A DNA stretch of 64,000 nt, taken from Bacteroides sp. UBA1773 (GTDB taxonomy: Bacteria; Bacteroidota; Bacteroidia; Bacteroidales; Bacteroidaceae). Every line of letters begins with the position of its first letter. Position 1 is the stretch's first letter. The DNA is taken from contig DCGR01000097.1 in the NCBI GenBank assembly GCA_002315285.1, forward strand, positions 2,447 through 66,446. The letters run 5' to 3'. Below are positions 1 through 15,026 of this stretch, piece by piece. The notes beneath the pieces were generated by a model, which was not told the DNA's origin, did no database searches, and saw only the letters and a list, made by a program, of their open reading frames with translations. Both the position numbers and the translations under genes were made by a program.

Positions 1-932
1 CCGGGCTTTGAAATGTTGATGCTTACCTGACCGCAATTGAGTGTGCGCACAAGTTCAGTGAAACTTCCGCGCTGGTCAACGTTCATCTTCAAATCAAAGA
101 TAGCCTTTTCCTTTGGCAGATAGCTCAGGTAGGTCGAGTACAGGCGCTTGGCAAAGCTGTCGGCTGGAATCTCGGGTATCATGAGTGTCCGGGGCATGTC
201 ATGAAACTGGTGTAGCAGGTCAACTATCTGACCAAGCTTCACGTGATGGGTGATTGGGGCGGCACAGTAGCGTCCGTCAGTCTGCAATACGGTGTCAACA
301 CCATCGAACTCGCAACGGTGCTCCTGACCTTTCAAGGCGCAAATCATTTCCTCGACCAGGTCATCGATGTAGAGCAGCTCCATGTCCACGCTGGGGTCGT
401 TGACCTGTATGGGCAGATCGTTGGCTATGTTGTTGCAGAAGGTGGCGACTGCACTGTTGTAGTTGGGACGGCACCATTTGCCGTAAAGATTCGGGAAACG
501 GTAGATTAGGATCTTGGCACCGGTCTCACGGCCGTACTGGAACATCAGCTCTTCGCCGGCCTTCTTGCTCTTGCCGTACTCGGAAGTTCCGAAACGGCCT
601 GTCAGAGTGGCCTGGATGGAGCTGCTGATCATGACCGGGCAACTGTTGCCGTATTTCTTCAGGGTGTTCAGCAGAACGGAGGCAAAGCCGAAGTTGCCCT
701 CCATAAACTCCTTGGGAACCTGAGGGCGGTTGACTCCGGCCAGATTGAAGACAAAGTCACACTCACGACACCACTGATCCAGCTGATCGGGTGTTGAGTC
801 GATGTCATATTTGTAGATTTCGGTTACAATAAGGTCACCGTAACACTTCGCCCTGCCGTCTTTGATGTTATTCAGTTGCGCACAAAGGTTCTTTCCGACA
901 AATCCCTTTGCTCCGGTTACAAGTATTTTCAT
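1..932 (-). CDS. CapF/FnlB-like bifunctional NAD(P)-dependent sugar reductase/epimerase (L-FucNAc-type pathway); 3' end lies outside the window
   Basis: The frame is open from the window edge to the ATG at 930-932, so it is absent from the track. The translation starts MKILVTGAKGFVGKNL (GxxGxxG), then FNLAGVNRP. The visible tail RGSFTELVRTLNCGQVSINISKPG looks like the cupin half of CapF-type enzymes. Confidence 0.7.
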   Translation of the reverse strand, partial: MKILVTGAKGFVGKNLCAQLNNIKDGRAKCYGDLIVTEIYKYDIDSTPDQLDQWCRECDFVFNLAGVNRPQVPKEFMEGNFGFASVLLNTLKKYGNSCPVMISSSIQATLTGRFGTSEYGKSKKAGEELMFQYGRETGAKILIYRFPNLYGKWCRPNYNSAVATFCNNIANDLPIQVNDPSVDMELLYIDDLVEEMICALKGQEHRCEFDGVDTVLQTDGRYCAAPITHHVKLGQIVDLLHQFHDMPRTLMIPEIPADSFAKRLYSTYLSYLPKEKAIFDLKMNVDQRGSFTELVRTLNCGQVSINISKP

Positions 933-1083
933 AGATAACACTTATTATACCATTCGGTAAATCTTCGTAATCTAATATGTCGGCAACGACCTTTCTGGTG
1001 TTCTGCAAATCTTGTCTCCAAATGTGTAGTACCATCAACATCATAAGGGCCATCGTTGCATTGAAGGATGTGGAAATGAGCCA

Positions 1084-2235
1084 TTAGCACTTGTAGTATC
1101 TCTTGTACCACTCAGCAAATGATCTAAGTCCATCTCTGAGCGAAGTACTCGGGCGGAATCCGAAATCACGCTCAAGGGCAGTAGTATCTGCATAAGTGGT
1201 GGGAACGTCACCAGCTTGCATAGGGACCAGTTCCTTATGACTCTCAAAGTCATAGTCATCGGGCAAAACTCCAGCACGAATAAGTTCCTCTTGAAGAATC
1301 TGCACGAAGTCTAGCAAGTTCATGGGCTTGGAGTTTCCTATATTATATATTTTATAAGGAGACAATGGCAGTCCATCTTCGCCAATCTTCCGTTCGGGTG
1401 CTTTATGTATCACCCTTTGAATACCCTCCACGATGTCGTCAATGTAGGTGAAGTCGCGCTGACAGTTGCCGTAGTTGAATATCTTGATGGGCTCACCTTT
1501 TATGAGTTTGTTAGTGAAGCCGAAGTAGGCCATATCGGGACGGCCGGCAGGACCATAGACGGTGAAGAAGCGCAGGCCTGTGGAAGGGATGCTGTAGAGT
1601 TTGCTATACGCATACGCCAAAAGTTCGTTCGACTTCTTGGTAGCAGCATACAGGCTGACAGGATTATCGACTTGATCGGACTCTGCAAACGGCACCTTCT
1701 TGTTGCCGCCATAGACGCTGGAGGAACTAGCGTAAACCAGATGCTGAACGCCAAGATAGGAAGCCCCTCCTAAATCCTCCCTTGTAGGGAGGACTTTATT
1801 TTCCCCTCTACGGGAGAGGGATAGGGGAAGGCTTCTTCGGCAGGCTTCGAGTATGTTGTAGAAACCGACCAGATTGCTCTCGACATAGACCTCTGGATTC
1901 TCGACGGAATACCGCACTCCATCCTGAGCCGCCAAGTTGACGACGATGTCGAAGTGATACTGTTCGAACAACTTATAGATTAGCTCCTTGTCCGCCAGAT
2001 TTCCCTTCACGAAGGTGTATTTGCTCTCTGGATGCCCGACCGCACATTTTTCGATTTGCTGCAAGCGCCATTCCTTCAACGACACATCGTAATAGCCATT
2101 GACGGAGTCGAAACCGACTATCTTAACTGGAGATTCGCTATTGAGCAGACTCAGCACGAGGTTGCTGCCGATGAATCCCGCAGAACCAGTAACAAGGATG
2201 GTCTTACCTGTAATATTCACATTATTTTGAAACAT
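1084..2235 (-). CDS. NAD-dependent NDP-sugar epimerase (UDP-glucuronate 4-epimerase-like), carrying a ~29-aa in-frame insertion
   Basis: KTILVTGSAGFIGSNLV Rossmann motif, HLVYASSSSVYG and YAATK catalytic motif. The track start at 2274 is TTG. The ATG at 2233-2235 (MFQNNVNITGKT) places the GxxGxxG at the usual distance from the N-terminus. Confidence 0.8.
   Translation of the reverse strand: MFQNNVNITGKTILVTGSAGFIGSNLVLSLLNSESPVKIVGFDSVNGYYDVSLKEWRLQQIEKCAVGHPESKYTFVKGNLADKELIYKLFEQYHFDIVVNLAAQDGVRYSVENPEVYVESNLVGFYNILEACRRSLPLSLSRRGENKVLPTREDLGGASYLGVQHLVYASSSSVYGGNKKVPFAESDQVDNPVSLYAATKKSNELLAYAYSKLYSIPSTGLRFFTVYGPAGRPDMAYFGFTNKLIKGEPIKIFNYGNCQRDFTYIDDIVEGIQRVIHKAPERKIGEDGLPLSPYKIYNIGNSKPMNLLDFVQILQEELIRAGVLPDDYDFESHKELVPMQAGDVPTTYADTTALERDFGFRPSTSLRDGLRSFAEWYKRYYKC
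1750..1836. repeat. GC-rich palindromic mini-element inserted in frame in the epimerase gene
   Basis: Two perfect hairpins: CCTCCCT-tgt-AGGGAGG (1776-1792) and CCCTCT-acggg-AGAGGG (1804-1820). They are flanked by imperfect inverted ends GAAGCC(CCTCCTA) at 1760-1772 and (TAGGGGAA)GGCTTC at 1822-1835. The element encodes RSLPLSLSRRGENKVLPTREDLGGASYLG between the conserved ILEACR and VQHLVYASS blocks. Confidence 0.6.
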
Positions 2236-2426
2236 ACGAATTGACAATTGCCTGTAATCAGTGTCAGTAATCAATTGTCAGTTGCCAGAAGTCAGCGGTT
2301 TTAGCAAATTGCGTGCCAAATTAGCGTATTCTGAACTTGTGGAACAAGCGTAACGCTCTATGTGATGAATCGAAAATTGAAATGGGTTATGATTGGGGGC
2401 TGCTTGGGCATGAGAATCCCCCTTCT

Positions 2427-4379
2427 TTATTGTTTCATCGCGTCGTGCATGTATTGACACACCTCGCTGAGTTGTGGAATGCGGTTGCGCCTACGGTCGA
2501 GAATGATGCCGAGTTGCTGACATAAGGGTTTCAAGAGGGCTTCAGTACGTGAATCATCGGTGATAATACGCTGAGGAATACGACCGGAAGATTTCGCCTT
2601 ATTAACATACTGAAGAAGAACGTCTCGCTCATAGTCGTCAGAGATTTCGCACAAATCAGAATTGCTGGTCATCAATGTGTTTTTGTCGACCGAAAACAGG
2701 GTGAGTGCCAGAAAAGCCTTCTCAGGTTCTGCTTCGTTGCCGATATATCCAGGGAAATGTAGAAGGCGTATGAACTCTGTGCCAATTTTCTGAAGGAGAC
2801 GAAGAGGTGTGATTTCGTCTTCGGACAATGTGACTGTTGTGAAGTTGTCAGTCAGACCTGGTAGTTTGGTACGCTCTACTTTGTAGCCTTCTGCTGTCTT
2901 TACCACGAGAGGCACTTCCTTCCCACCCTTTTCTGTGGCATACACGCGAGTTGTCTTGAATCCGAATTTTGTCAAGTCATCTGTATCCATAATCTGTTGA
3001 CTGAACCATACGATAGCTTCAAGCGCCTCTTTAATACGAGCAAGTTGTGTGTCATCGCTCGGCAATCTGGTTGGAACACAATGGGGACGAAAGATTTGCG
3101 GGAAAGGATAACCATGAGAACCTTCTATCTTCTGATCATGTGCCTCCGCCCATAGCTCAATCTGACGATACCGCTCGGGACGCATCATCCCATCCTCAGG
3201 GTCATCGAATATGACAGACATGTAGTCGGCCCAATAATGTAATTCCATTAATTCGAAACTTGGACATTGGACTTGGACACTCTTCGCCATAAATATGTAG
3301 GTTTGGAAACTGTCTGCTCCATCATAGAGTTGGACATCGAAGGTCTCACCTCCGTACCCCATGGTGGCAATATAGATTTCTGAACCATCCTGCATACGAA
3401 TGGCAAAAACATCAGAGTCGTCAAGATCCTCCCATAACTCGCTTTCACGAATTTTGAAAGAGAGGGAAATGATATCGTCATAAAGGGGAGACCATTTTGC
3501 GAGCTCTTCTTTTGCCATTGAATCAAGGTCGTGGCTTATCAGACGAGCACCGTTGGATGCATCCATTATTTCCTCGGCTGATTCATCATCGGTAAAACTG
3601 TCGCAGATATCAATACATTCGTACTTGTCAAAATATTCCGGATCATAATCCTTGTTCCAACCTGCCCATTCGAGCCGTTCTTTCTCATCGGAAGTCAGAC
3701 GTTTGCGAGACCTACGTTTTTCGAGAATATCGAGAAGTGCCTGATAGCCCCACACACCACCACAGTCCTCAGGAGGACAGGCTCCCTTGCCGCTCTTGAA
3801 GATTATTTCGTGGAGTTCATCTTCTTTATATTCCTCAATAGAAGAGAGGCGGATTTCATGCTCCCATGAGTCACCGAAGTCATACTCCCACTTAATGGAC
3901 TTGCCTCTCACGTTGAGAAGATCGGAAAGTTTATATTCCTCTTGAAAGAAAGTGTTGCCCCAGCTATCGTCACGGCAATACTGATAGTAAGGTACATAGT
4001 ACGCATCATGGGTGCCTACTATCTGATTGAGATGTTCATTCCACCATCCCATCAACCGCAACACCAGTTCAGTAAGATGGCGAAGGGAGATGTTTGAGGG
4101 ACAATCGAACTTACGCCAAATGGTAGGAGTAGTGCCCTTGAGCGCAACACGTATGGTGTACTTCTTGACTTCGTCAGAAGGAAGGAAATGAGGATAGTTC
4201 ACCTCGTCGTACTCGGGTTTTGAACTTCGCTTGCTTTTCTGTTTAGGTGTTTGCTTCTTAGAGATAGGGACAGTGATTATCTCAGAAATGAATTCTGAGA
4301 GTGCCTTTTCGGTTTCTTCGCGTGACTTGCCAGTCGTCTGCATGAACCGCTGCAAGAGGTCTTCGGGTATCTGTGGCAT
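2427..4379 (-). CDS. pRiA4b ORF-3 / MM3350-like domain protein with a ~350-aa uncharacterised C-terminal extension
   Basis: 650-aa ORF with an ATG start. Residues ~70-250 (YTIRVALKGTTPTIWRKFDCPSNISLRHLTELVLRLMGWWNEHL...WEYDFGDSWEHEI...GKGACPPEDCGGVWGY) match the signature I recall for the plasmid pRiA4b ORF-3 / IS1096 TnpR-passenger family. A GGGGG/CCCCC hairpin (2395-2422) follows the stop. Confidence 0.6.
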   Translation of the reverse strand: MPQIPEDLLQRFMQTTGKSREETEKALSEFISEIITVPISKKQTPKQKSKRSSKPEYDEVNYPHFLPSDEVKKYTIRVALKGTTPTIWRKFDCPSNISLRHLTELVLRLMGWWNEHLNQIVGTHDAYYVPYYQYCRDDSWGNTFFQEEYKLSDLLNVRGKSIKWEYDFGDSWEHEIRLSSIEEYKEDELHEIIFKSGKGACPPEDCGGVWGYQALLDILEKRRSRKRLTSDEKERLEWAGWNKDYDPEYFDKYECIDICDSFTDDESAEEIMDASNGARLISHDLDSMAKEELAKWSPLYDDIISLSFKIRESELWEDLDDSDVFAIRMQDGSEIYIATMGYGGETFDVQLYDGADSFQTYIFMAKSVQVQCPSFELMELHYWADYMSVIFDDPEDGMMRPERYRQIELWAEAHDQKIEGSHGYPFPQIFRPHCVPTRLPSDDTQLARIKEALEAIVWFSQQIMDTDDLTKFGFKTTRVYATEKGGKEVPLVVKTAEGYKVERTKLPGLTDNFTTVTLSEDEITPLRLLQKIGTEFIRLLHFPGYIGNEAEPEKAFLALTLFSVDKNTLMTSNSDLCEISDDYERDVLLQYVNKAKSSGRIPQRIITDDSRTEALLKPLCQQLGIILDRRRNRIPQLSEVCQYMHDAMKQ

Positions 4380-4429
4380 AATATTACTTTGAAATGGTAG
4401 GCAGCTTAATCCAAATCGCCATAACCAGT

Positions 4430-6334
4430 TTATTTATCGTATTCTTGGTATTCGCTGTTATGGCTCTTAAACTCTGGAACAATCCGTTTCATCAGTTTCA
4501 CCAAATCTGCAATCTGGCACGACCTCGACAACAAAGTGAGTTCGTCCACCGCTTTACATGCATCGGAATAACCGTACTCACGGACTTTTGCGATTCTGAT
4601 CTTGTCGTGTAACGTAGATTCCGTATTTTCCTGTTCGGCAAGTACTTCTTCGTAAAGTTTCTCCCCTGGTCGAAGACGCGTATATTCTATCTCAATGTCC
4701 TCACCGGCCCTCAATCCTGCAAGTTCTATCATCTTTTGAGCCAAATCGGCAATTCGCACTGGTTCTCCCATATCGAACACAAAAATCTTATTGTTAAGAC
4801 CCATTATGGCTGCCTCCATCACAAGACGGCACGCCTCAGGAATCGTCATGAAGAAACGTGTGATATCGGGATGGGTGACGGTAACAGGTCCACCATTTTC
4901 AATCTGCTCACGGAAGCGTAGAATTACGGAGCCGTTCGACCCAAGGACATTGCCAAAACGTGTGGTCACAAATCCCGTTTTGCCCACCACCTCACCTTTC
5001 GCTATTGCAAGACCTAGACTCTGCACATAGATTTCGGCAAGCCGTTTGCTACAACCCATAATGTTTGTAGGATTGACAGCCTTGTCGGTGGAAATCATCA
5101 CCATCATCTCCACTCCATATTCAACACTCTTGTCGGCTACTATCCTTGACCCATACACATTGGAAAGAACTGCTTCGCAAGGATTCTCCTCCATCAATGG
5201 TACATGCTTATAGGCCGCCGCATGAAACACCACTTGTGGATGCCAAGTACGAAATACATAATCAAGACTCTCAAGATGCCGAACATCGCCCATCACTGGA
5301 ACAAAATCCAGTTCTGGAAATCTCGCCTCAAGTTCAAGGCGCAAATTGTGCATCGGAGTTTCCGCATTATCGAACAGTACAAGCCGCTTCACCTCGAAGT
5401 TCGCCAACTGACGGCACAACTCGGAACCGATACTGCCTGCCGCACCTGTAACCATTACGACCTTTTCACAAAATCCTTTCTTGATTTTATTCTTAGAAAT
5501 CGTAATTTCAGGGCGTCCGAGCAGGTCTTCTATCTCTACTCCACGAACGATGCCTTTCTTATTATCACCACCGACCATCTCATCAATAGTTGGTGAAATG
5601 AGGATTTTGACATCATTGTCCACACAATACTTCACATATCCGTCCCTTTCTGCCTTGACATGGGCATCCGAAATGAAAAGAATGGCATAAAGGGAATATC
5701 TCTCGACCATTGACTTAAATTCCTCCTCTGTTTGACATGTTACTACAGGACAACCAACTAACTTGAGATTCCTGTGACCGGATTCGCGTGAGACAAAGCC
5801 TAACACATGGTAACGTTTTGAACTGCCAAGACGAGTTACGACCGCTATCGCCTCATCAGAAGTGCCAAATACAAGAATACGTTGCTTACGTACAACATCT
5901 TTCATCTTCATTTTAAAAAGGGTGTAAAAGTCAACCATCAGAAAACGAACCCCCAGCGTCAGGAACACTGTCAACAGGAAATCGACAATGACCGCAACGA
6001 CTATCGCAACATTGAGTGTGCACGTCAGCGCAATGAGTACTGTCAAAAGGACCTTCGTAACAAGTATCACCAAAATGTTTTGGCGGAAATCCCTAAAGGT
6101 GGCATATCGCACTACCACGTTATAACTCTTACAAACGATCATCATGACCATTGAGAAAACAACAGAACCACCCAACCACCATAAGGCAAATGAACCCGAA
6201 TAATAGTCAGTACGTGCCAAGAAGTTAAGCAACAACACCACCACGAACGATGACATCAATGAAATCATGAAATCCAAAACAAAAATTATTTTGGGATCCA
6301 CATGATCAGAAGCATATTTTGATATTATTCCCAT
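4430..6334 (-). CDS. CapD/WbpM/PglF-type membrane-anchored NDP-sugar (UDP-GlcNAc) 4,6-dehydratase
   Basis: The N-terminus has about 4 hydrophobic helices. Then VMVTGAAGSIGSEL, AAYKHVP and ISTDKAVNPTNIMGCSKR. The track start at 6373 is TTG; the first ATG is at 6332-6334. Confidence 0.85.
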   Translation of the reverse strand: MGIISKYASDHVDPKIIFVLDFMISLMSSFVVVLLLNFLARTDYYSGSFALWWLGGSVVFSMVMMIVCKSYNVVVRYATFRDFRQNILVILVTKVLLTVLIALTCTLNVAIVVAVIVDFLLTVFLTLGVRFLMVDFYTLFKMKMKDVVRKQRILVFGTSDEAIAVVTRLGSSKRYHVLGFVSRESGHRNLKLVGCPVVTCQTEEEFKSMVERYSLYAILFISDAHVKAERDGYVKYCVDNDVKILISPTIDEMVGGDNKKGIVRGVEIEDLLGRPEITISKNKIKKGFCEKVVMVTGAAGSIGSELCRQLANFEVKRLVLFDNAETPMHNLRLELEARFPELDFVPVMGDVRHLESLDYVFRTWHPQVVFHAAAYKHVPLMEENPCEAVLSNVYGSRIVADKSVEYGVEMMVMISTDKAVNPTNIMGCSKRLAEIYVQSLGLAIAKGEVVGKTGFVTTRFGNVLGSNGSVILRFREQIENGGPVTVTHPDITRFFMTIPEACRLVMEAAIMGLNNKIFVFDMGEPVRIADLAQKMIELAGLRAGEDIEIEYTRLRPGEKLYEEVLAEQENTESTLHDKIRIAKVREYGYSDACKAVDELTLLSRSCQIADLVKLMKRIVPEFKSHNSEYQEYDK

Positions 6335-6439
6335 ATTTCCAAGAAGGATTCTACCCCCCCTAAAAATTTGCAAATTATTGATTTTATGTAACTTACAAAC
6401 AACACCAAACTTATTTCATGAACATTATTGATTGTGCAT

Positions 6440-7246
6440 TTACCGACTGACGCTCCGGCTTGTGCATGAGGCCTTGCAAACCTGTTTGTGCTTTCGATCG
6501 ATTCCCCAAAGATTGCCTTGTGAATCAAGGGCTATGCCTTGTCCATTAAAAGGAATGTCGATGGTGTCTGTAAGCTGGAGTCGCATTCCATAGGGTGGAA
6601 AATCCAAGACAAAGAGTTTCTGGGCATCGTGCCCCGTACAATAGAATTTGCCATCGACAAACAATCCTCCTGACAGACTATTGGGATGGAGCTCGTCCAA
6701 AAGCTCCTTTGGAAGTATCCATCCTTGAAGACGGTGCCAATCATCGTCAAACTGCACTATCTGCGTCCAAGATGCGTCCTTTAGCATCTCTCCTCCTACA
6801 TTGTATCCGCTTCTGTCATAATGTGCAAAACAGACATACCAACAACCGACACCTCGTACCACCCAAGTGCATGAACCCGCATTGATGCCAAGACTGATGG
6901 TACGGACATGCTCCAGTGTCCGAGGATTGAACACTTCGATGGAACTTGCCATGGGCACATCCGGATAATTGGAATGGGAACAGTAGAGTAAACCGTCAAC
7001 AACAATGCCTCCATCAAAATGTTTGATGAGCCGCGCGTCGGATTCACTCCATGTAGTAACCGAGTCGCCCTTGAGCGTATATTTGGAGATGCTCTGATTG
7101 CCGATGGCATAGAAGCTTTCGGAATCGACCGCCACTCCCTGAATGGCATTGGAAGATGAGAATGTCTCAACGATATGATAATTCTGCGACATGACTTCTC
7201 CAGTTACAAGAGCGAAGGTACAGAAGAGTATAAACCTGATTTTCAT
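6440..7246 (-). CDS. Secreted hypothetical protein, beta-propeller-like
   Basis: The ATG at 7244-7246 gives the signal peptide MKIRFILFCTFALVTGEVMSQ. Repeated hydrophobic-strand/Gly-Asp patterns occur (IALDSQGNLWGIDR, GGIVVDGLLYC). No catalytic motif recognised. Confidence 0.5.
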   Translation of the reverse strand: MKIRFILFCTFALVTGEVMSQNYHIVETFSSSNAIQGVAVDSESFYAIGNQSISKYTLKGDSVTTWSESDARLIKHFDGGIVVDGLLYCSHSNYPDVPMASSIEVFNPRTLEHVRTISLGINAGSCTWVVRGVGCWYVCFAHYDRSGYNVGGEMLKDASWTQIVQFDDDWHRLQGWILPKELLDELHPNSLSGGLFVDGKFYCTGHDAQKLFVLDFPPYGMRLQLTDTIDIPFNGQGIALDSQGNLWGIDRKHKQVCKASCTSRSVSR

Positions 7247-7292
7247 AAGACATGCGTTATAATAAGGGAACAGATCCATAGACAAAACTAAC

Positions 7293-8459
7293 CTATTTCC
7301 CAAACGAATCTATCCTAAAATCCACAACATAAGGACGTTTATTGGCATCCTTTCCACGCTTCAAGAATACGATGAGTTCAACAACCGAACCAACCGAAGG
7401 TACAACCTGTTTTGACTGCAACAATTGTTCAGACAAATAGCCCATGGTATATGATGGCTCTGTGGTTCCCAGCTCTACCAGAGGCAGGCCATCGGTAAGT
7501 TCCCATGCACAATATTGCGGACTTGTATTGACTCGCGTGATTCGTACCTTACGATAGCCAAATAGCTGTGCCCCTTCTTCGACCGAATACACCTTATTTA
7601 TTAAGGCACTTTTGAAACGGCCATTTTGAGGAATGATAGGGATGAAACTAACATACTGACCTACAGCAGGACGAATGTTCGACTTTACAGCCACAAAATG
7701 GCATGAAGAATTGTCGAAAATGTGCACATGATCGTGATTAAAATCGATGTGTTCGACATAGCCTATCAATAATGGAAACAATTCGGGAATAGGACGAGGT
7801 TCCAATATGGCAGCCTCTGCCCGCCAAGTCTCATCTCGCAATCCAGCCTTGACATTTCGCAAAAGCACACGAAACAAGCGGTTCGGAATGTCAGCATAGC
7901 GCAAGCGACAAAAAGCAGTAAGTGTGTGTACCTCGGTAGTAATGTCCGTTCCATCAGCTGCGACCAAACGAGCAAACGTGATGGCACGTCCGCGTACTTC
8001 GGAAGTGAATACAGAGGTGACAATCATCGGGACGAAAGGTTCCGACAAAGAAAATCCCTTTTTGCGAATGAGCGGAGCAAGAACCATTTCCAATTCCTCA
8101 TCCAGCCGTTCGTCGGGGTGAAACAGCAAGGAATAAACGTATGCTTTGGACAACCGTTCCACCAATGAAGGATACGACTTTCCCGATGCATCAATATGGA
8201 CCTCACTATCTTCTTTCCGCAAATTCTCCAACCCCCATGCCTCGAGAAAAGGCACAAAGTGAAAATCCGGATACATTGTAGCCATTCTCACCGCCACCGA
8301 CAAGATAGCAGAATGTAACCGGGAGGGCCTTGGGATGTTAGATTCCATATAAGAAGCCAAGATTCGGCGTAACTCCACCGACGGCTGTTTCCCAATGCCT
8401 TCGTTAAGCGTTCGTAACGTGTCCCACCCATGAGACTGTTGTGATGAATCCATAAGCAT
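7293..8459 (-). CDS. Hypothetical cytoplasmic protein (388 aa), family not recognised
   Basis: Long ORF with an ATG start, lying 8 nt downstream of the preceding gene. No signal peptide or TM segment. A helical N-terminal third is followed by three strand-rich segments that look like small beta-barrels. Confidence 0.6.
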   Translation of the reverse strand: MLMDSSQQSHGWDTLRTLNEGIGKQPSVELRRILASYMESNIPRPSRLHSAILSVAVRMATMYPDFHFVPFLEAWGLENLRKEDSEVHIDASGKSYPSLVERLSKAYVYSLLFHPDERLDEELEMVLAPLIRKKGFSLSEPFVPMIVTSVFTSEVRGRAITFARLVAADGTDITTEVHTLTAFCRLRYADIPNRLFRVLLRNVKAGLRDETWRAEAAILEPRPIPELFPLLIGYVEHIDFNHDHVHIFDNSSCHFVAVKSNIRPAVGQYVSFIPIIPQNGRFKSALINKVYSVEEGAQLFGYRKVRITRVNTSPQYCAWELTDGLPLVELGTTEPSYTMGYLSEQLLQSKQVVPSVGSVVELIVFLKRGKDANKRPYVVDFRIDSFGK

Positions 8460-8467
8460 TAACGAAA

Positions 8468-9649
8468 TTACATGCCACTACGTCGGATACGCAGTTCTAT
8501 CGCCTCGGAATGGTTGTCACTAAATACTGTAGCATCATTCACCACACAAGCCAAATATCCACCAGCACCGGCACCCGACAATTTCCATGCCAACACATCG
8601 GGATCAACTGCCCAACGGTCGATATGGCTCTGAACCGTACCTTGTATCATAGCTGGAAACATTGCCACCTGAGCCTCGAACGAAGCTTGGAGATATTTGG
8701 CAAATCCATCGAGGCAAAGGCTCATGATGGATTGCCAACACTTGTCTGCCGCAACAGCAAGGGCTTGTACCTTGGCACGGGTAATGTCCTTCCCTTCCAC
8801 AATACTACAACCAATCGGACGGGCATCAATAGGAATAAGTGCCAGATGACTTTCGAGCCACCGAAGAACGGACTCGTCCTCACTACTCTCTATACGTTCG
8901 GGCCAGAAGTGATTGTCGTAATAATGGCGACAAAGACCTGGCACACAGATGCCGATGGCATCCTGCGCACCACTGATAATGCCATCCTCACGCTCAGGAT
9001 TATTCTCGAAACAGAACACCAAGCGGGCGAGAGTCTCGGGATTCATATTGGGAAGCTGATAAGGCCAAATACGTTTGATGTGGTTGCGTGTGGAAGTCGA
9101 TAATCCACAACGCTCGCGTATCTCGAACGATGGCTCAAGGGAAATGGTAATGGCCCAGCCAGGAGCATGACAGCTTACGTAAGGCTGGTCAATCCACGTG
9201 CCGGCAAGGTCGAGACGCGTAGGTATCTGGCAAGGGCTCTTCTTCAGGTCGGTAGAAGAACGAGCCTCCAATCCTTGCTGCGGGACACGCTCAAGGACAA
9301 CATACTCCATGCCACGCTCCTCACAAACCTTGCGTTTGGCATCACTTCCTCCATCGGAATTGACCACCAGAATGTCCGGACGGACAATGTCGAGTGTCGG
9401 CAAGAAATCAAGAATACCATCGCCTTGATTGATAAACGCCTCCTTGACATAACGAATGCTGCGTACCATGAACAGACGTTCCTGCTCGGAATATACGGTC
9501 TTATGATTCTTATAATGAAGAATGGTGCAATCGGAACCTATGCCTACATACAAATCGCCATACTGTGCAGCCTGACGGAAAAACTCCACATGACCAGAAT
9601 GAAGCAAGTCGTAACAACCCGACACAAATACTTTCTTTCGCTTTTCCAT
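8468..9649 (-). CDS. Fusion protein: cytidylyltransferase-fold nucleotidyltransferase (N-terminal) + fucokinase/HddA-like GHMP kinase (C-terminal)
   Basis: N-terminal motifs: VFVSGCYDLLHSGHVEFF (HxGH), SIRYVKEA, ERVPQQGLEARSSTD (RTxGISTT-like). C-terminal motifs: PTRLDLAGTWIDQP, SGAQDAIG, KLSGAGAGGYL. GHMP motif II is degenerate (ERCGLSTSTR). Confidence 0.7.
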   Translation of the reverse strand: MEKRKKVFVSGCYDLLHSGHVEFFRQAAQYGDLYVGIGSDCTILHYKNHKTVYSEQERLFMVRSIRYVKEAFINQGDGILDFLPTLDIVRPDILVVNSDGGSDAKRKVCEERGMEYVVLERVPQQGLEARSSTDLKKSPCQIPTRLDLAGTWIDQPYVSCHAPGWAITISLEPSFEIRERCGLSTSTRNHIKRIWPYQLPNMNPETLARLVFCFENNPEREDGIISGAQDAIGICVPGLCRHYYDNHFWPERIESSEDESVLRWLESHLALIPIDARPIGCSIVEGKDITRAKVQALAVAADKCWQSIMSLCLDGFAKYLQASFEAQVAMFPAMIQGTVQSHIDRWAVDPDVLAWKLSGAGAGGYLACVVNDATVFSDNHSEAIELRIRRSGM

Positions 9650-9666
9650 AATTTCTGTTTTTCATC

Positions 9667-11745
9667 TTATCGCCACTCCAGACGCAGGTTGTGAAGTTCG
9701 CTGTCGGCATGACGTGAACTACAATCAGTACGAGTCAGACTTATCCGATGCGATTTGCCTGCATGAAAGTCATCCTTGCCGAGAGTGAGCCTATATACGG
9801 TTTGGTCAGCAGCAACCCGAATCATCGATTCAAGCACGCGCTCGTTGCGGTTGTAGGAGCGCAATACGATTTGGTTCTCACCTTTCTTCAGAGTCACCAA
9901 TACCTTTTCTTCGCGATAAGAGCAACGGAAAGGATTGAGGTGTTTCATGACAGAAAGCCCATTCACAAACAAATCGACACCGTTTCCGGCTCCCACCTCC
10001 AACACGATGTCTTGCGTGCATGGTGAAGTGATGGTCTCCATCATGTACATGGTATCGAAAGGACGTCCCTCGATAGTGACACGCGACTGTGATGTCTCTG
10101 TCCACGGAATGACAACCTGTCCGTCTGGCATCTTCCCGGAAGAAAATGCTACTTCCTTCTCCATGGCGAAACCATGCCGAACCACACGACACCAACGACG
10201 TGCCGACTCCACGACGGGTGTGTAGCGTAGTTGCTGCGCATTGGTTTGTCCCAAGGTGCAACACCGTTCGTTGCCATCGACTACCACCGAAACAGCCTTT
10301 CCGGCATCACTGGCCGTAAACACAAAACCTGCCTGCTTGCCTTTGTGCTTGGTATCAATATTCCAACAATAACCCACTTCGCTACGTTCGTTGGAATAGT
10401 AGTCCTGACAATTATAACTGCTGACGGCTATACGGGTATTCATCAGCGTAGCATCTTCCGGCTGGATTGCACTGCCAAATTCAAGCCGCACGACTTGGAT
10501 ATCCCCCTCATACGCTTCAGGCAATAGTCTCACCACCAACTTGCCCCTCTGCTGCACTACTGTGGCTGGTCCAGACACTCCGACAAGCCTATCGGCCACC
10601 GAAGGTAAAGTAATCTCACCGGATTCAGGACGTACACCCGAGAGGATGAGATTCATCTTGTTGTCGTTGCGAGTAATTCCTCCCCAACTGAAGGGTTGCT
10701 GATAAGGACTCCCTTCGCAAGCGTATATCACATCGCCATTCAACCGAAGCCACGCACCTATCTCCTTGAGCACCTCTGCCTCCCAAGGAACCACCTCGCC
10801 CAAACCCGTAGGACCGATGTTGAGCAGATAATTGCCACCACCAGCCACTACACGTATCAGGCAGCAAAGCTTTTCGTGTGCTTTCGCATGTGCATCGCCA
10901 CGTTCCTGCCAACTGCGATACCCCCATGTGGCATCGAACATGGAAGCAGGACACTGCCAGGCCGTTTGAAGAGATGCCTCAGGATAAAAGTTATCGCCCA
11001 TGACAGCAAAGTCGTACTGCCCGTTGCCCAAGCGACCACTTACCATACACTCGGGTTGATGCTGATGTACCAGATCGTAAAGTTGCTTGCTTTGCTGTGG
11101 CGTCAGACTTCCCATGTCGAACCACAGTTCACTGATGTTCCCATAGTTGGTGACCAATTCACGAACCTGATTCAGATTCAACTGATGATGCACATCCGGA
11201 ATGACATTGGCATTATGACTGGTAATGCTTGACGCTCCAGGATGATGCCAGTCGATAAGAGAATAATACAAGCCAAAACTGATACCTCCACGATGGCACG
11301 CATCGGAGAGTTCGGCAATGAAATCACGGTGGCATCCCGCACTGTCGTAAGAGTTGAAAGTGGTAGTGGCTGTACGGAAAAGACAGAACCCATCGTGATG
11401 TTTTGAAGTGATCACAATGGAACGCATCCCCGCCTGCTTGGCCAATGCCACAATGGCATCGGCATCAAACCGTTCAGGATTGAACTGGTCGGCAAGTCGT
11501 TCATACACATCACCATAAATGCCAGCATGTGCCTGAATCTGTTCGCTATACCCCCGACTGATCTGCCGTCCATCCCATACTCCACCAAGCATGGAATACA
11601 AGCCGAAATGAATGAACATGGAATACTTGTTGTCATGCCAACTTTGGGCAGTGACCTGTTCAGACCGTACACCTGCCAACAAAACAGGACAACAAACCTG
11701 CGACACGCAAAGCAGGACAAACAATCTGATTATGGCTTTCTTCAT
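9667..11745 (-). CDS. Secreted alpha-L-fucosidase (GH29) with C-terminal beta-sandwich domains
   Basis: Signal peptide MKKAIIRLFVLLCVSQVCC. GH29 core: YSMFIHFGLYS...AKQAGMRSIVITSKHHDGFCLF...GLYYSLIDWHHP. The track start at 11748 is GTG; the ATG is at 11743-11745. Confidence 0.85.
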   Translation of the reverse strand: MKKAIIRLFVLLCVSQVCCPVLLAGVRSEQVTAQSWHDNKYSMFIHFGLYSMLGGVWDGRQISRGYSEQIQAHAGIYGDVYERLADQFNPERFDADAIVALAKQAGMRSIVITSKHHDGFCLFRTATTTFNSYDSAGCHRDFIAELSDACHRGGISFGLYYSLIDWHHPGASSITSHNANVIPDVHHQLNLNQVRELVTNYGNISELWFDMGSLTPQQSKQLYDLVHQHQPECMVSGRLGNGQYDFAVMGDNFYPEASLQTAWQCPASMFDATWGYRSWQERGDAHAKAHEKLCCLIRVVAGGGNYLLNIGPTGLGEVVPWEAEVLKEIGAWLRLNGDVIYACEGSPYQQPFSWGGITRNDNKMNLILSGVRPESGEITLPSVADRLVGVSGPATVVQQRGKLVVRLLPEAYEGDIQVVRLEFGSAIQPEDATLMNTRIAVSSYNCQDYYSNERSEVGYCWNIDTKHKGKQAGFVFTASDAGKAVSVVVDGNERCCTLGQTNAQQLRYTPVVESARRWCRVVRHGFAMEKEVAFSSGKMPDGQVVIPWTETSQSRVTIEGRPFDTMYMMETITSPCTQDIVLEVGAGNGVDLFVNGLSVMKHLNPFRCSYREEKVLVTLKKGENQIVLRSYNRNERVLESMIRVAADQTVYRLTLGKDDFHAGKSHRISLTRTDCSSRHADSELHNLRLEWR

Positions 11746-11775
11746 CACACTCGATTTTAAGCATTACTAAAGTTA

Positions 11776-12531
11776 TCAGTCGATATGCTTCAATATGTCG
11801 TCTATCCAATTACCACGTGCGAGAATAGTTCCGTCAGGATCAATGAGCACAAAGGCAGGGATGGCACGAACCCCATATTGCACAGTCGGAGAACCTTGAC
11901 GACCTCCCGTAAAGATTACCGGCCAAGTAATACCCAAATCCGACATGGCCTTGCGGGTGTCATCGACCGAATTTTCCCAAACTGCAACACCCACAATATC
12001 CACCTTTCCAGACTGATTCAATCCCAGTAAATGATTGCGTATGGCTTCTCGACAAGGACCACACCACGAAGCCCAGAAATCAACCAACGAGGGCTTGTCG
12101 CCTCCGACAAATGAACTCAGCCTCCGCATCTCACCCGTAAGCGGGTCGGTGCCCTCGATTTCCATATAAGTCTTGCCTGGCGCAGCAAGCGACTCATTTT
12201 TCACCGACTCGATTTTCACTTTTACCGTCTCATTATTGCGTATCATTTCAGAAGCCTTAGCATAAAGGACCAACGCCTCTTGAGAATCACAATAGCCAGA
12301 AATGAGCTGCACAAACAAGTCAAGTCCGACACTATCTTCCTTATGCGATGCATAGGCATCTAACAATAAAGCATGAAGCCTATCCATTTGCTCCTCGCGC
12401 GTGAGTGTAGAATCGGCAACAATCTCATCATACGCACAATTTATTTCTTCCAGACTCGACTGTGAATGGTTGCTTTTACAACTACTCACAAGGACAACCA
12501 ATACGACTATTACACAAACACATTTTTTCAT
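11776..12531 (-). CDS. TlpA-like thiol-disulfide oxidoreductase lipoprotein (thioredoxin fold)
   Basis: Lipoprotein signal MKKCVCVIVVLVVLVSSC. Active site FWASWCGPC. Confidence 0.8.
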   Translation of the reverse strand: MKKCVCVIVVLVVLVSSCKSNHSQSSLEEINCAYDEIVADSTLTREEQMDRLHALLLDAYASHKEDSVGLDLFVQLISGYCDSQEALVLYAKASEMIRNNETVKVKIESVKNESLAAPGKTYMEIEGTDPLTGEMRRLSSFVGGDKPSLVDFWASWCGPCREAIRNHLLGLNQSGKVDIVGVAVWENSVDDTRKAMSDLGITWPVIFTGGRQGSPTVQYGVRAIPAFVLIDPDGTILARGNWIDDILKHID

Positions 12532-12904
12532 ACTCTATCTCGTCTTGCACTGACTTTGAAGTGGCAAGTTGCCGTTCAATGATTTCAAAAACATTCTCTC
12601 ATGAAATATAAAAGCTTTGCTTTTGCTTGTCACACACCAAAAGATTTGCTGACAAACAAGACAAACAAACGCTGAAAGACATTGAGCACCAATCCTAACG
12701 CAATCTATTTCGATGCAAATATATATACAATCCAATAAATTTACAATTTTTTTCATCAAATTCGGCGCAATCAACTCAAAAATAACTTTTACAATCACTC
12801 ATGTCAATGTCTTTATGTCGCTCTCAACTCTTGTTACAAGCATGTTACATATACCATTCAATGCAAAGCCAACAATTACCTATTGTAGCTACGTGTCGGT
12901 TATG

Positions 12905-12990
12905 CAGCATAAAAGAAAATTTACTGGTCTCTCGTGAAAAATTAGAGTACAGTAAAATAATTTTCTGTACAGTAATTTTCACCGAGAGCC
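12905..12990 (-). terminator. Long imperfect hairpin followed by a T-rich tract; likely terminator of the korAB/kinase/nucleotidyltransferase transcript
   Basis: Outer arms are GGTCTCTCGTGAAAAATTA (12926-12944) and TAATTTTCACCGAGAGCC (12973-12990). The inner perfect stem is GTACAG/CTGTAC (12947-12952 / 12965-12970). On the minus strand the hairpin is followed by ATTTTCTTTTAT. Confidence 0.45.
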
Positions 12991-13071
12991 CAGTAATTTT
13001 CCAATCGTTCACACAACAACACGAAGCAAAAAATATGTGAACATGCACATAGTTCATACCTCGTACTGGCA

Positions 13072-13812
13072 TCAACCCACGACAATGCCCCTATACGTCT
13101 GCTGTACGAGCTGATAACTTGCCAAATTGCCGATATCGTACCGACAACCTGGCATTTGCATTGCATGGACCGTAGTCTGGGTACAAAGCCAAGCGATGTA
13201 GCTTCCAGGAGCATCAGTTCCGCAGCCGCTCTCGATGCCTTTCCTTACAAGACGAGCATCCTGACGCGTGTAATAGTAAAAAGGCGGACAGCACCAATGG
13301 CTGGCTGGAGCAGGAGACTTCTCCGTAAGCAACAACACACGGTCGGTGTCATCGACCGTAGCCACTCCTGACCTGAGGAGACGCTTCTCGTCGGACTCAT
13401 AATAGCGCATGATGGCTGAAGTGCCTTTTTGCTGGGCGTAAGCAATAAACTTGGTCAGGCTAAAATCAAGCACATTATCGCCTGCTATTACCAGCATGTC
13501 ATCGTAGAGATGCAAGCTTTCGATGGCATACAGAATGTCCTTTACGGCTCCCAAGCGGGTTTCATTAGTGGAAGTGCCATCATCGACTACCGTGATATGT
13601 TGTGTCTTTCTTAATGCCCATTCCGTAAAGTGATGGGCAAAGCGATGATTCGAAATAACTACATACTGATCGATGACGCCGGCCGTGTCAATGTCATCGA
13701 CCAACCAATCGAGTATGGTCTTGTCGCTTACCTTCAACAAAGGTTTGGGAAAATTTTCGGTTAAGGGATACAAACGGGTGGCATAACCAGCTGCCAATAT
13801 GATGCACTTCAT
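13072..13812 (-). CDS. Sugar-1-phosphate nucleotidyltransferase (NTP_transferase fold)
   Basis: N-terminal MKCIILAAGYATRLYPLTENFPKPLLKV (GxGTRL-type motif). 246 aa. Confidence 0.75.
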   Translation of the reverse strand: MKCIILAAGYATRLYPLTENFPKPLLKVSDKTILDWLVDDIDTAGVIDQYVVISNHRFAHHFTEWALRKTQHITVVDDGTSTNETRLGAVKDILYAIESLHLYDDMLVIAGDNVLDFSLTKFIAYAQQKGTSAIMRYYESDEKRLLRSGVATVDDTDRVLLLTEKSPAPASHWCCPPFYYYTRQDARLVRKGIESGCGTDAPGSYIAWLCTQTTVHAMQMPGCRYDIGNLASYQLVQQTYRGIVVG

Positions 13813-13847
13813 TACTTCATGTATAAAAAACAGTTCAACTGAAACGA

Positions 13848-15026
13848 TTACAAACGAAACTGTACGCCATCGGCACTGTGACAGATTATTGTCTGGTACT
13901 TATCAGACAAAGCAGGAAACTCCTTGAGATATGCTTCCGCAACCTTGGCAACAATCTCCTCACGATAATCAGGATTGATAAGTGAAACACAACAACCTTT
14001 GAAACCAGCACCGGAAAACCTGCCTCCATAAATTCCTTTTGTGCGTGTCAGAATGTCGTAGAGAGCCTTCAGTTCCGGACATCCGGTCTCCCAGTTGACA
14101 ATAGACGATTCACCGCTCAAGAACGAAAGTTGCCCATAGGTCTCGATGTCGCCTTGACGCCATGCTTCTGCAGCACGCTCAACCCGCTCTTGTTCAGTGT
14201 ACCAATGTTCCGCCCGCTTACGCCACGGTTCGGGCAATCGCGATTTATACGCCTCGAAGACATCGCGTGGCACATCGCGCAGATTCGTTTCATTGTACTT
14301 CCCATATTCAATACCCGCATAAGCCTTGAGGGCATAGGCAGCGCTACGGGCCTCATCGACACGCATATTGAGTTTAGAACCAGTAAGATTACGTTCCATA
14401 CCACTGAAAAAGATAACGATTTCGTAGGGTTTCATGTGATTACCTGTAGGAATCAACTCATAAGCATCATTCTGGGTATCTACAAAAAGCAAGTGATCTT
14501 TCTTCGCGAAAACTTCGCACGACTGATCGGAAACACCCACATTGACGCCTACATAACAACGCTCGGCAAACAATGCCATATGGATGAGTTCGGTAGATGA
14601 CAATTGTACATCGTTGACCTGAGCAAGCGCCTGCAAAAAGGAAATGGTCACCGCTGCCGATGAAGAAAGTCCGCCGATGGGCAGACTACCCTCAATCACC
14701 CCACAAAGTCCCATGTGCAACACATAGCGTTGACTCAAGGCTAATGTCGCTCCGCGCAAATAATCGGCCCAATCATCGACCTTACTCTCAGGGGTTTCCC
14801 TGATGTGCCACTGAGCTCGTTTTCCAAACTGTAGAGAGGTCAACTCAACAACACCATTCCGTTTAGGACTGTAGGCCAAATGGATGCCACGATCAAGTGC
14901 CAGACCTGTAGTCTTGCCCAATCCGTAGTCCGAATGTGCCCCTACAGGCATCACCCGTTGCGGACAAAAAGCCAACGAACCGGCCTCACGCCCATATATT
15001 TCGAGAAAGCGTTGCTGACAAAGCAT
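13848..15026 (-). CDS. Galactokinase-family GHMP sugar-1-kinase, specificity unknown
   Basis: PVGAHSDYG (GEHxDY-like), LPIGGLSSSAAV (motif II), GGRFSGAGFKGCC (motif III). Confidence 0.75.
   Translation of the reverse strand: MLCQQRFLEIYGREAGSLAFCPQRVMPVGAHSDYGLGKTTGLALDRGIHLAYSPKRNGVVELTSLQFGKRAQWHIRETPESKVDDWADYLRGATLALSQRYVLHMGLCGVIEGSLPIGGLSSSAAVTISFLQALAQVNDVQLSSTELIHMALFAERCYVGVNVGVSDQSCEVFAKKDHLLFVDTQNDAYELIPTGNHMKPYEIVIFFSGMERNLTGSKLNMRVDEARSAAYALKAYAGIEYGKYNETNLRDVPRDVFEAYKSRLPEPWRKRAEHWYTEQERVERAAEAWRQGDIETYGQLSFLSGESSIVNWETGCPELKALYDILTRTKGIYGGRFSGAGFKGCCVSLINPDYREEIVAKVAEAYLKEFPALSDKYQTIICHSADGVQFRL

Follow-up and report, generated by a model that had tools for sequence, protein, structure and literature searches.

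How might a gut Bacteroides activate scavenged L-fucose with an enzyme other than Fkp? Fkp-dependent salvage is the textbook route by which fucose taken from the surroundings comes to decorate the surfaces of these bacteria, and GDP-fucose is routinely prepared in vitro with Fkp. The question is raised by a locus of Bacteroides sp. UBA1773, analysed here in a 64,000-nucleotide (nt) stretch of contig DCGR01000097.1 (assembly GCA_002315285.1, positions 2,447 to 66,446), which we refer to as the window. In this locus, a gene for a secreted GH29 α-L-fucosidase is followed on the minus strand by one for a fusion of a cytidylyltransferase-like domain with a GHMP-family kinase (CT::GHMP). A sequence-only reading had placed both genes in an operon running on into surface polysaccharide genes, and had described the arrangement as the logic of Fkp carried out with different parts. 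We find strong comparative evidence that CT::GHMP may act as a compact, non-orthologous replacement for Fkp, and that the region is a lineage-specific fucose release-and-activation neighbourhood rather than a conserved pathway unit.

Domain architecture of CT::GHMP

Fkp of Bacteroides fragilis (PDB 5yys, 9iip and 9iit) is a bifunctional L-fucokinase/GDP-L-fucose pyrophosphorylase. Like Fkp, CT::GHMP (8468-9649, minus strand) joins a GHMP-family anomeric kinase and a nucleotidyltransferase in a single polypeptide, with the nucleotidyltransferase at the N terminus in both cases. The two differ in size and fold: Fkp spans approximately 950 amino acids (aa) and carries a PF07959 pyrophosphorylase, whereas CT::GHMP has 393 aa, lacks a linker or β-helix and begins with an HxGH-type, cytidylyltransferase-like domain (PF01467, residues 9-136). 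Pfam and NCBIfam scans returned only PF01467 at the N terminus, with no match there to the Fkp-type guanylyltransferase PF07959. The HxGH motif (HSGH) and the R-S-S-T segment of this nucleotidyltransferase fold are both present, and the C-terminal 250 residues make up a compact GHMP anomeric sugar kinase with motifs I-III.

The kinase halves of the two proteins also share the residues that handle fucose. In the crystal structure of Fkp, binding and catalysis involve Arg592, Trp599, Asp601, Thr602, Glu751, Gly759, Gln761 and Asp762 (PMC11982464). Across an alignment of eight CT::GHMP sequences with 28-86% identity, the equivalent residues Arg145, Trp152, Asp154, Glu215, Gly227, Gln229 and Asp230 are invariant (8/8), while Thr602 of Fkp is replaced by Gln155. 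Comparison with the Fkp of a related genome using hhalign aligned the G-x-Q-D segments of the two proteins (SGAQD with GGWQD) at 98.5% probability. When a single C-terminal CT::GHMP sequence was searched against solved structures, the C-terminal domain of Fkp was the sole match, motif I reading PTRLDLAGTWIDQP versus PVRIDMAGGWTDTP. In profile searches, the kinase half matched Fkp and the heptose kinases HddA/WcbL, and the N-terminal half matched ethanolamine-phosphate cytidylyltransferase (ECT), TagD and an RfaE-like protein.

A sugar kinase fused to an HxGH nucleotidyltransferase for a β-sugar-1-phosphate is also the plan of HldE/RfaE, the heptose kinase/heptose-1-phosphate adenylyltransferase. 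Unlike HldE, in which the kinase is ribokinase-like and N-terminal, CT::GHMP has a C-terminal kinase of the GHMP type. It falls short of the RfaE/HldE family models, scoring 50.6 bits against TIGR02199 (cut-off 181.5) and 30 against PRK11316 (cut-off 521), and neither GmhA nor GmhB, which the HldE pathway needs, is linked to CT::GHMP here.

CT::GHMP accounts for at least 8000 metagenomic clusters at 90% identity, annotated only as ‘adenylyltransferase/cytidyltransferase family protein’. One set of metagenomic proteins (P0320, P0319, P0397 and P0336) includes larger fusions of CT::GHMP with a RhaM mutarotase (593 aa) and of Gmd with the kinase half (601 aa). The same set holds GT2 joined to the kinase half (667 aa) and a PNP_UDP_1 phosphorylase-superfamily domain joined to CT::GHMP (655 aa). 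These fusions may be real or may be artefacts of gene calling. In the literature open without subscription, which included a 2025 paper on Fkp phylogeny, we found no description of an Fkp analogue with a cytidylyltransferase fold.

CT::GHMP and Fkp do not co-occur in the sampled family

We sampled 201 genomes from the family, with a completeness of 90% or more in 199. CT::GHMP was found in 40 and Fkp (PF07959 in a frame of approximately 950 aa) in 80, and 0/201 had both (hypergeometric P = 6.7e-11, a calculation that ignores relatedness). Both systems are represented in four genera, where the numbers of species with CT::GHMP and with Fkp are 1 and 3 (g2), 5 and 7 (g10), 2 and 2 (g13) and 7 and 4 (g16); that is, 15 species with CT::GHMP, 16 with Fkp and none with both. 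Two interchangeable enzymes would be expected to exclude each other within genera in this way. Beyond the family, one genome (G054) carries both Fkp and a CT::GHMP relative of 40% identity.

The genome from which the window derives (79% complete) yielded no Fkp (PF07959), gmd, fcl or RhaM-type mutarotase. A GT11 fucosyltransferase was found neither there nor in the sister genome of the same genus (G001); other fucosyltransferase families were not searched. FucI and FucP are encoded together on contig C56 (34238-37350) and there are six copies of GH29, so fucose would be released, imported and then either catabolised or activated. More widely, gmd is absent from four of eight CT::GHMP genomes, among them ones that are 94% and 98% complete.

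The 98% complete genome G022 encodes a GT11 fucosyltransferase and CT::GHMP (C7:3287-3763 and C32:18417-19547) with neither gmd nor Fkp, and CT::GHMP is therefore the sole candidate source of the donor substrate for the GT11 enzyme. This genome is well suited to testing fucosylation that relies on salvage alone.

Fucose genes recur in the neighbourhood of CT::GHMP

To the window we added eight regions of related genomes and 80 loci taken at one genome per species; 5 of these 89 loci were dropped because no single CT::GHMP open reading frame (ORF) was called, leaving 84 for comparison. The CT::GHMP homologues at these loci are 64-86% identical. ORFs were clustered, and recurrent clusters were identified by Pfam and sub-clustering. 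Within five genes of CT::GHMP, a FucP-type MFS permease is present in 35 of the 84 loci, a RhaM-type mutarotase in 31, Gmd in 24 and Fcl in 21, and 59 loci have at least one of the four. Typically the genes run Gmd-Fcl-CT::GHMP-FucP-mutarotase, and they generally border a polysaccharide locus that contains GT2, DegT, PglC-like, ManC and CapD genes. In 10/84 loci, a CapD-type gene is no more than five genes away, and it sometimes adjoins CT::GHMP. Like Fkp, CT::GHMP is associated with fucose and polysaccharide genes, and the distributions of the two are complementary.

GH29 was found near CT::GHMP in seven of the 84 loci, six of which have it on the same strand and at most four genes away, in approximately five lineages and in differing arrangements. 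One of them (L118) reads FucP-CT::GHMP-mutarotase-GH29-x-GH29. Two others carry, on one strand, aldo-keto reductase-Amidohydro_2 (lactonase-like)-FucP-Zn-dehydrogenase-CT::GHMP-(mutarotase)-GH2-GH29 (L097, 5812-15564; L106, 5541-16157), and genes for non-phosphorylative fucose catabolism, salvage and harvest appear to lie within one unit there.

L118, L097 and L106, together with L073, L116 and the locus of Segatella copri H-2632 (L108), represent a fucose module of the Bacteroidales whose CT::GHMP is 64-81% identical to ours (65% in S. copri H-2632). Unlike the window, they have FucP and a RhaM-type mutarotase beside CT::GHMP, often gmd/fcl and sometimes a same-strand GH29; in the window, a thioredoxin-like lipoprotein, an OB-fold protein and a propeller are found instead. 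The relatives that carry CT::GHMP come mostly from the rumen and herbivore guts, and the host origin that the sequence-only reading gave to the released deoxyhexose is best regarded as an assumption.

A probable route for fucose release and activation

The neighbouring genes, the exclusion of Fkp and the invariant fucose-binding residues make the idea of Fkp logic with different parts well supported, and the presence of GH29 near CT::GHMP in other loci agrees with it. CT::GHMP is a probable L-fucose kinase/fucose-1-phosphate nucleotidyltransferase, as judged from its sequence and genomic context. In the scheme that we propose, the exported GH29 enzyme would free L-fucose from fucosylated glycans and the FucP permease, encoded elsewhere beside fucI, would import it. 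The GHMP half of CT::GHMP would then phosphorylate the anomeric hydroxyl of β-L-fucose to give β-L-fucose-1-phosphate, which the HxGH half would join to a nucleotide; the logic of the pathway suggests GDP-L-fucose as the product. At the level of the locus, these two genes belong to a genus-specific run of five, probably a single transcription unit, in which CT::GHMP is reasonably likely to be the compact non-orthologous replacement for Fkp. GH29 and CT::GHMP are the only two of the five genes that share a pathway.

Several observations weigh against this interpretation. The characterized HxGH-family enzymes matched by the N-terminal half use CTP or ATP, and none uses GTP; GDP-fucose is proposed as the product because of the linkage to gmd/fcl and the exclusion of Fkp only. 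Motif III of the kinase (residues 358-364) reads GAGAGG here and GAGGGG in most aligned copies, that of the sister genome included. With no fucosyltransferase identified in the genome of the window, there is no known sink for activated fucose, and the absence of GT11, gmd, fcl, Fkp and the mutarotase is itself provisional because the genome is only 79% complete. The disregard of relatedness in the hypergeometric test is a problem that the within-genus pattern lessens without removing. Finally, GH29 makes up 8 of the 1293 ORFs around CT::GHMP, an enrichment of only approximately twofold over its density in the genome of the window; this is not significant alone, and the pairing seen here could be coincidental.

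That last point opens the way to a different explanation, in which the genes are chance neighbours: GH29 would be one of six nutritional fucosidases feeding FucI catabolism, and the five genes would be a mixture or several units. It would fit with the location of FucI-FucP on another contig, with the restriction of the gene order to one genus and with the unrelated functions mixed in the run (a thiol-disulfide lipoprotein, an OB-fold protein and a propeller). We nevertheless regard it as unlikely, since the same-strand placement of GH29 close to CT::GHMP in six of seven loci spans some five lineages, the gap between the two genes is short both here (17 nt) and in the sister genome (27 nt), and both enzymes would handle the same sugar. 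An improbable extension of our preferred scheme is that this genus truly lacks gmd/fcl as well as Fkp, so that the GH29-linked CT::GHMP would be its sole route to activated fucose and surface fucosylation would depend entirely on scavenging, with CDP- or ADP-L-fucose perhaps the product of the HxGH half.

It is also conceivable that CT::GHMP activates another sugar, such as D-glycero-D-manno-heptose in the manner of HldE, L-rhamnose, L-galactose or D-arabinose, and that its position beside a fucosidase is irrelevant. The heptose kinases HddA/WcbL are among the best profile matches of the kinase half, the N-terminal domain resembles domain II of RfaE (the sub-threshold TIGR02199 match given above), the mutarotase found beside CT::GHMP belongs to the L-rhamnose mutarotase family, and the genome of the window has a GmhA-like SIS protein scoring 198.6 bits, just under the cut-off. 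We consider this quite improbable. There is no variation in the G-x-Q-D motif for sugar binding or in the tryptophan whose Fkp counterpart stacks against C4-C6 of fucose, the recurrent neighbours are FucP and gmd/fcl and not GmhA, GmhB or HddC, and CT::GHMP and Fkp exclude each other throughout the sample. Heptose as the substrate was rejected: GmhA is missing from four of eight CT::GHMP genomes, including ones 94% and 98% complete, and the GmhA-like gene here has genes for GH2 and ROK-kinase proteins beside it rather than genes for heptose. Some Fkp enzymes are reported to be promiscuous towards L-galactose or D-arabinose, and by analogy CT::GHMP may be too.

Organization of the five-gene run

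With fucose release and activation as the preferred reading of GH29 and CT::GHMP, we turn to the genes around them. Every gene in positions 1-20730 of the window is on the minus strand. The sequence-only reading listed a run of four, GH29, CT::GHMP, a 388-aa orphan and a secreted propeller-like protein, separated by 17, 8 and 46 nt, and both our coordinates and our family scans agree with that layout; a thioredoxin-like gene just 30 nt 5′ of the fucosidase had been overlooked. Because of this short distance, we describe a same-strand run of five genes that starts after an intergenic region of 540 nt (12532-13071, minus strand). This region is a candidate promoter region, with two matches to the -7 box consensus: TATTTTTG (12777-12784) and TATATTTG (12716-12723). 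In the order of transcription, the gaps are 30, 17, 8 and 46 nt, followed by one of 105 nt. No terminator-like hairpin was detected in the intergenic gaps of the run, as had been noted for the four genes from GH29 to the propeller; from the sigma-70 promoter scan we used only the terminator part, the sigma-70 model being uninformative for Bacteroidota.

The claim that no -7 box lies between those four genes does not hold, as the 46-nt gap 5′ of the propeller gene contains an exact TAnnTTTG match, TAGTTTTG (7283-7290, minus strand). We do not claim an internal promoter at this site: the match is weak, has no properly spaced -33 TTTG and is absent from the sister genome. The five genes are probably co-transcribed from the 540-nt region 5′ of the thioredoxin-like gene; co-transcription is very probable for GH29, CT::GHMP and the 388-aa gene, and likely for the propeller gene as well.

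The order thioredoxin-GH29-CT::GHMP-388-aa-propeller is otherwise kept only in the sister genome (L031), where the proteins are 67-86% identical and the gaps within the unit are 19-46 nt. In the remaining 82 loci, a search of approximately 10 kb around CT::GHMP revealed homologues of neither the thioredoxin-like protein nor the 388-aa protein nor the propeller. The order is therefore shared with one sister species and no further, which comes close to the outcome (an order not conserved beyond this strain) that the sequence-only reading had itself named as counting against its proposal. The sister unit ends in a 222-nt gap holding a palindrome, GTCCTGTACAGGAC, and a T-run, beyond which lie glycogen-type and other unrelated genes and no CapD.

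The first gene of the run (11776-12531) encodes a TlpA/thioredoxin-like lipoprotein of 251 aa (Pfam Redoxin, AhpC-TSA and Thioredoxin_8) with a lipobox (LVSSC) and a WCGPC motif; in the sister genome it occupies the same position, with 67% identity. The fucosidase (9667-11745, minus strand, 692 aa) has a signal peptide and a GH29 catalytic domain (PF01120, E 1.9e-67, 228.6 bits, residues 33-339). A search of solved structures returned 48 GH29 homologues (best E 1.2e-63), the closest including AlfC and a Bifidobacterium asteroides enzyme. Its C-terminal region of approximately 350 aa has no match in Pfam or NCBIfam, even at E values up to 10.

The predicted cytoplasmic 388-aa protein (7293-8459, minus strand) has no match in Pfam or NCBIfam (E up to 10) or in a PDB sequence search. 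Its AlphaFold2 model (predicted local distance difference test, pLDDT, 95.1) has tandem OB/cold-shock-like barrels after a helical domain at the N terminus, and the best Foldseek hits were the single-stranded DNA-binding protein LEF-3, Unr CSD456, AIM2 HIN and RPA. Binding of nucleic acid or of some other ligand is its probable role, and neither the fold matches nor the contexts of its homologues suggest a sugar enzyme. These homologues form approximately 70 clusters (31-71% identity) in unrelated settings, such as beside BlaR-type M56 peptidase genes or with an SDR epimerase, a thioesterase and Dus.

The last protein of the run (6440-7246, minus strand, 268 aa) is secreted and has no Pfam or NCBIfam match at E values up to 10. 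It had been described as propeller-like, and its AlphaFold2 model is indeed a β-propeller of five blades (pLDDT 91.1). Foldseek matched the model to papaya glutaminyl cyclase (TM score 0.63-0.67) and to NHL and olfactomedin propellers, and profile searches to NHL and Pizza propellers. The family is widespread in Bacteroidota. A homologue with 70% identity (L127-L131) overlaps the stop codon of a GH43 gene within a GH3/GH95/GH43/GH78/GH28/GH106 cluster of the pectin (rhamnogalacturonan) type, and other homologues follow a gene for an ECF (extracytoplasmic function) sigma factor. The protein may act on or bind glycans in the periplasm, and its family may represent an undescribed carbohydrate-active protein; nothing in these matches or contexts ties it to fucose.

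Short repeated sequences were noted around the unit. After the propeller stop codon lies a palindrome, AATTTGCAAATT (6385-6396), and a related one, TTTGCAAATTTT, is placed likewise in the sister genome (L031, approx. 6960-6975), where the downstream genes differ; it may mark a conserved 3′ boundary or a putative binding site. The motifs CCAGTAAATTTT and AAAATTACTGG, built around a GTACAG/CTGTAC palindrome, are intergenic in both genomes, upstream of the unit in the window (12926-12990) and downstream of it in the sister genome (L031, 6830-6900), and may be a repeated intergenic element.

Beyond the 540-nt region, positions 13072-15026 encode a GalK-family GHMP kinase and a 246-aa NTP_transferase, a second kinase-pyrophosphorylase pair. 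Homologues of this pair adjoin an epimerase and CT::GHMP in one locus (L065) and lie within 8 kb of CT::GHMP in another (L048), pointing to a tendency of sugar-activation genes to cluster in these genomes.

Genes downstream of the run belong to a UDP-sugar pathway

The sequence-only reading continued the operon through a CapD-type dehydratase, an epimerase and a CapF/FnlB-like reductase. All three genes are present on the minus strand: a membrane-anchored CapD/PglF/WbpM-type nucleoside diphosphate (NDP)-sugar 4,6-dehydratase (4430-6334; PF02719, E 3.9e-112), and, together spanning 3-2274, an SDR NDP-sugar epimerase (1084-2274) and an FnlB/WbcJ-type reductase whose start is at 941 and whose frame continues past the edge of the window. 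They are not contiguous, as a gene for a 650-aa pRiA4b-ORF3/DUF7309/DUF6930 protein (2427-4379, minus strand) lies between CapD and the epimerase. A paralogue of the N-terminal domain of this protein, 43% identical, is encoded on contig C35 (18562-19218). The gap between the propeller stop codon and the CapD ATG at 6334 is 105 nt (6335-6439), or 66 nt if the TTG at 6373 is the start, exactly as had been reported. In addition to the palindrome described above, it contains a TAnnTTTG match, TAAGTTTG (6406-6413). Transcriptional read-through from the run into CapD may occur, and we lean against it.

To the left of the window, bases 1-3387 of contig C42 hold the complete FnlB-like reductase (406 aa), followed by FnlA (TIGR04130, 494 bits) and a WecB-type 2-epimerase, so the downstream genes are those of a UDP-6-deoxy-L-HexNAc-type pathway. 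By family assignment, the genes that follow the epimerase to the contig end represent a complete UDP-L-FucNAc-type set. The downstream genes match the FnlA/FnlB/FnlC, CapE/F/G and CapD/PglF families, whose pathways take UDP-GlcNAc as their starting substrate and do not require free fucose; CapD, FnlA, FnlB and WecB act on sugars derived from UDP-GlcNAc, not on fucose. We see nothing biochemical that would link the UDP-L-FucNAc-type genes to GH29 or CT::GHMP. CapD, the epimerase and FnlB are neighbours outside the fucose pathway, and a functional link between that pathway and the UDP-HexNAc genes is unsupported. No UpxY/UpxZ leader, glycosyltransferase or flippase/polymerase gene was found among the genes scanned (window 1-15026 and C42 1-3500), the view of capsule-type genes being limited by the contig end 2.4 kb beyond the window.

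The earlier proposal of a conserved harvest-to-surface operon, with released fucose feeding the adjacent surface-glycan genes, is therefore not borne out. A single transcript from the fucosidase to CapD, the epimerase and FnlB, serving a dedicated pathway that places a scavenged deoxyhexose in surface polysaccharide, is very improbable: the shared strand, the lack of hairpins between genes, the CapD-type genes in 10 of 84 loci and the frequent position of CT::GHMP at the edge of polysaccharide loci would suit it, but the order is limited to one genus, the sister unit ends without CapD, a -7 box match precedes CapD here, the pRiA4-ORF3-type gene splits the sugar genes, these act on UDP-HexNAc, no GT11 was found in the genome, homologues of the 388-aa protein and of the propeller have unrelated neighbours in other genomes, and no UpxY-type or other capsule leader gene was seen among the scanned genes.

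Implications for fucose salvage

The proposed larger operon matters less than the enzyme at its centre, since the arrangement is genus-specific. If CT::GHMP has the activities proposed here, it would offer a far smaller catalyst with which to make nucleotide-fucose, and would raise the question of which nucleotide an enzyme of the HxGH fold attaches to fucose. Were the product CDP- or ADP-L-fucose, it would represent a novel type of activated fucose donor, used by transferases of its own. Within the family, CT::GHMP, with its different nucleotidyltransferase fold, appears to replace Fkp in a fifth of the sampled genomes, including Segatella copri, which, if true, would explain fucose salvage by Prevotella-type bacteria that lack Fkp.

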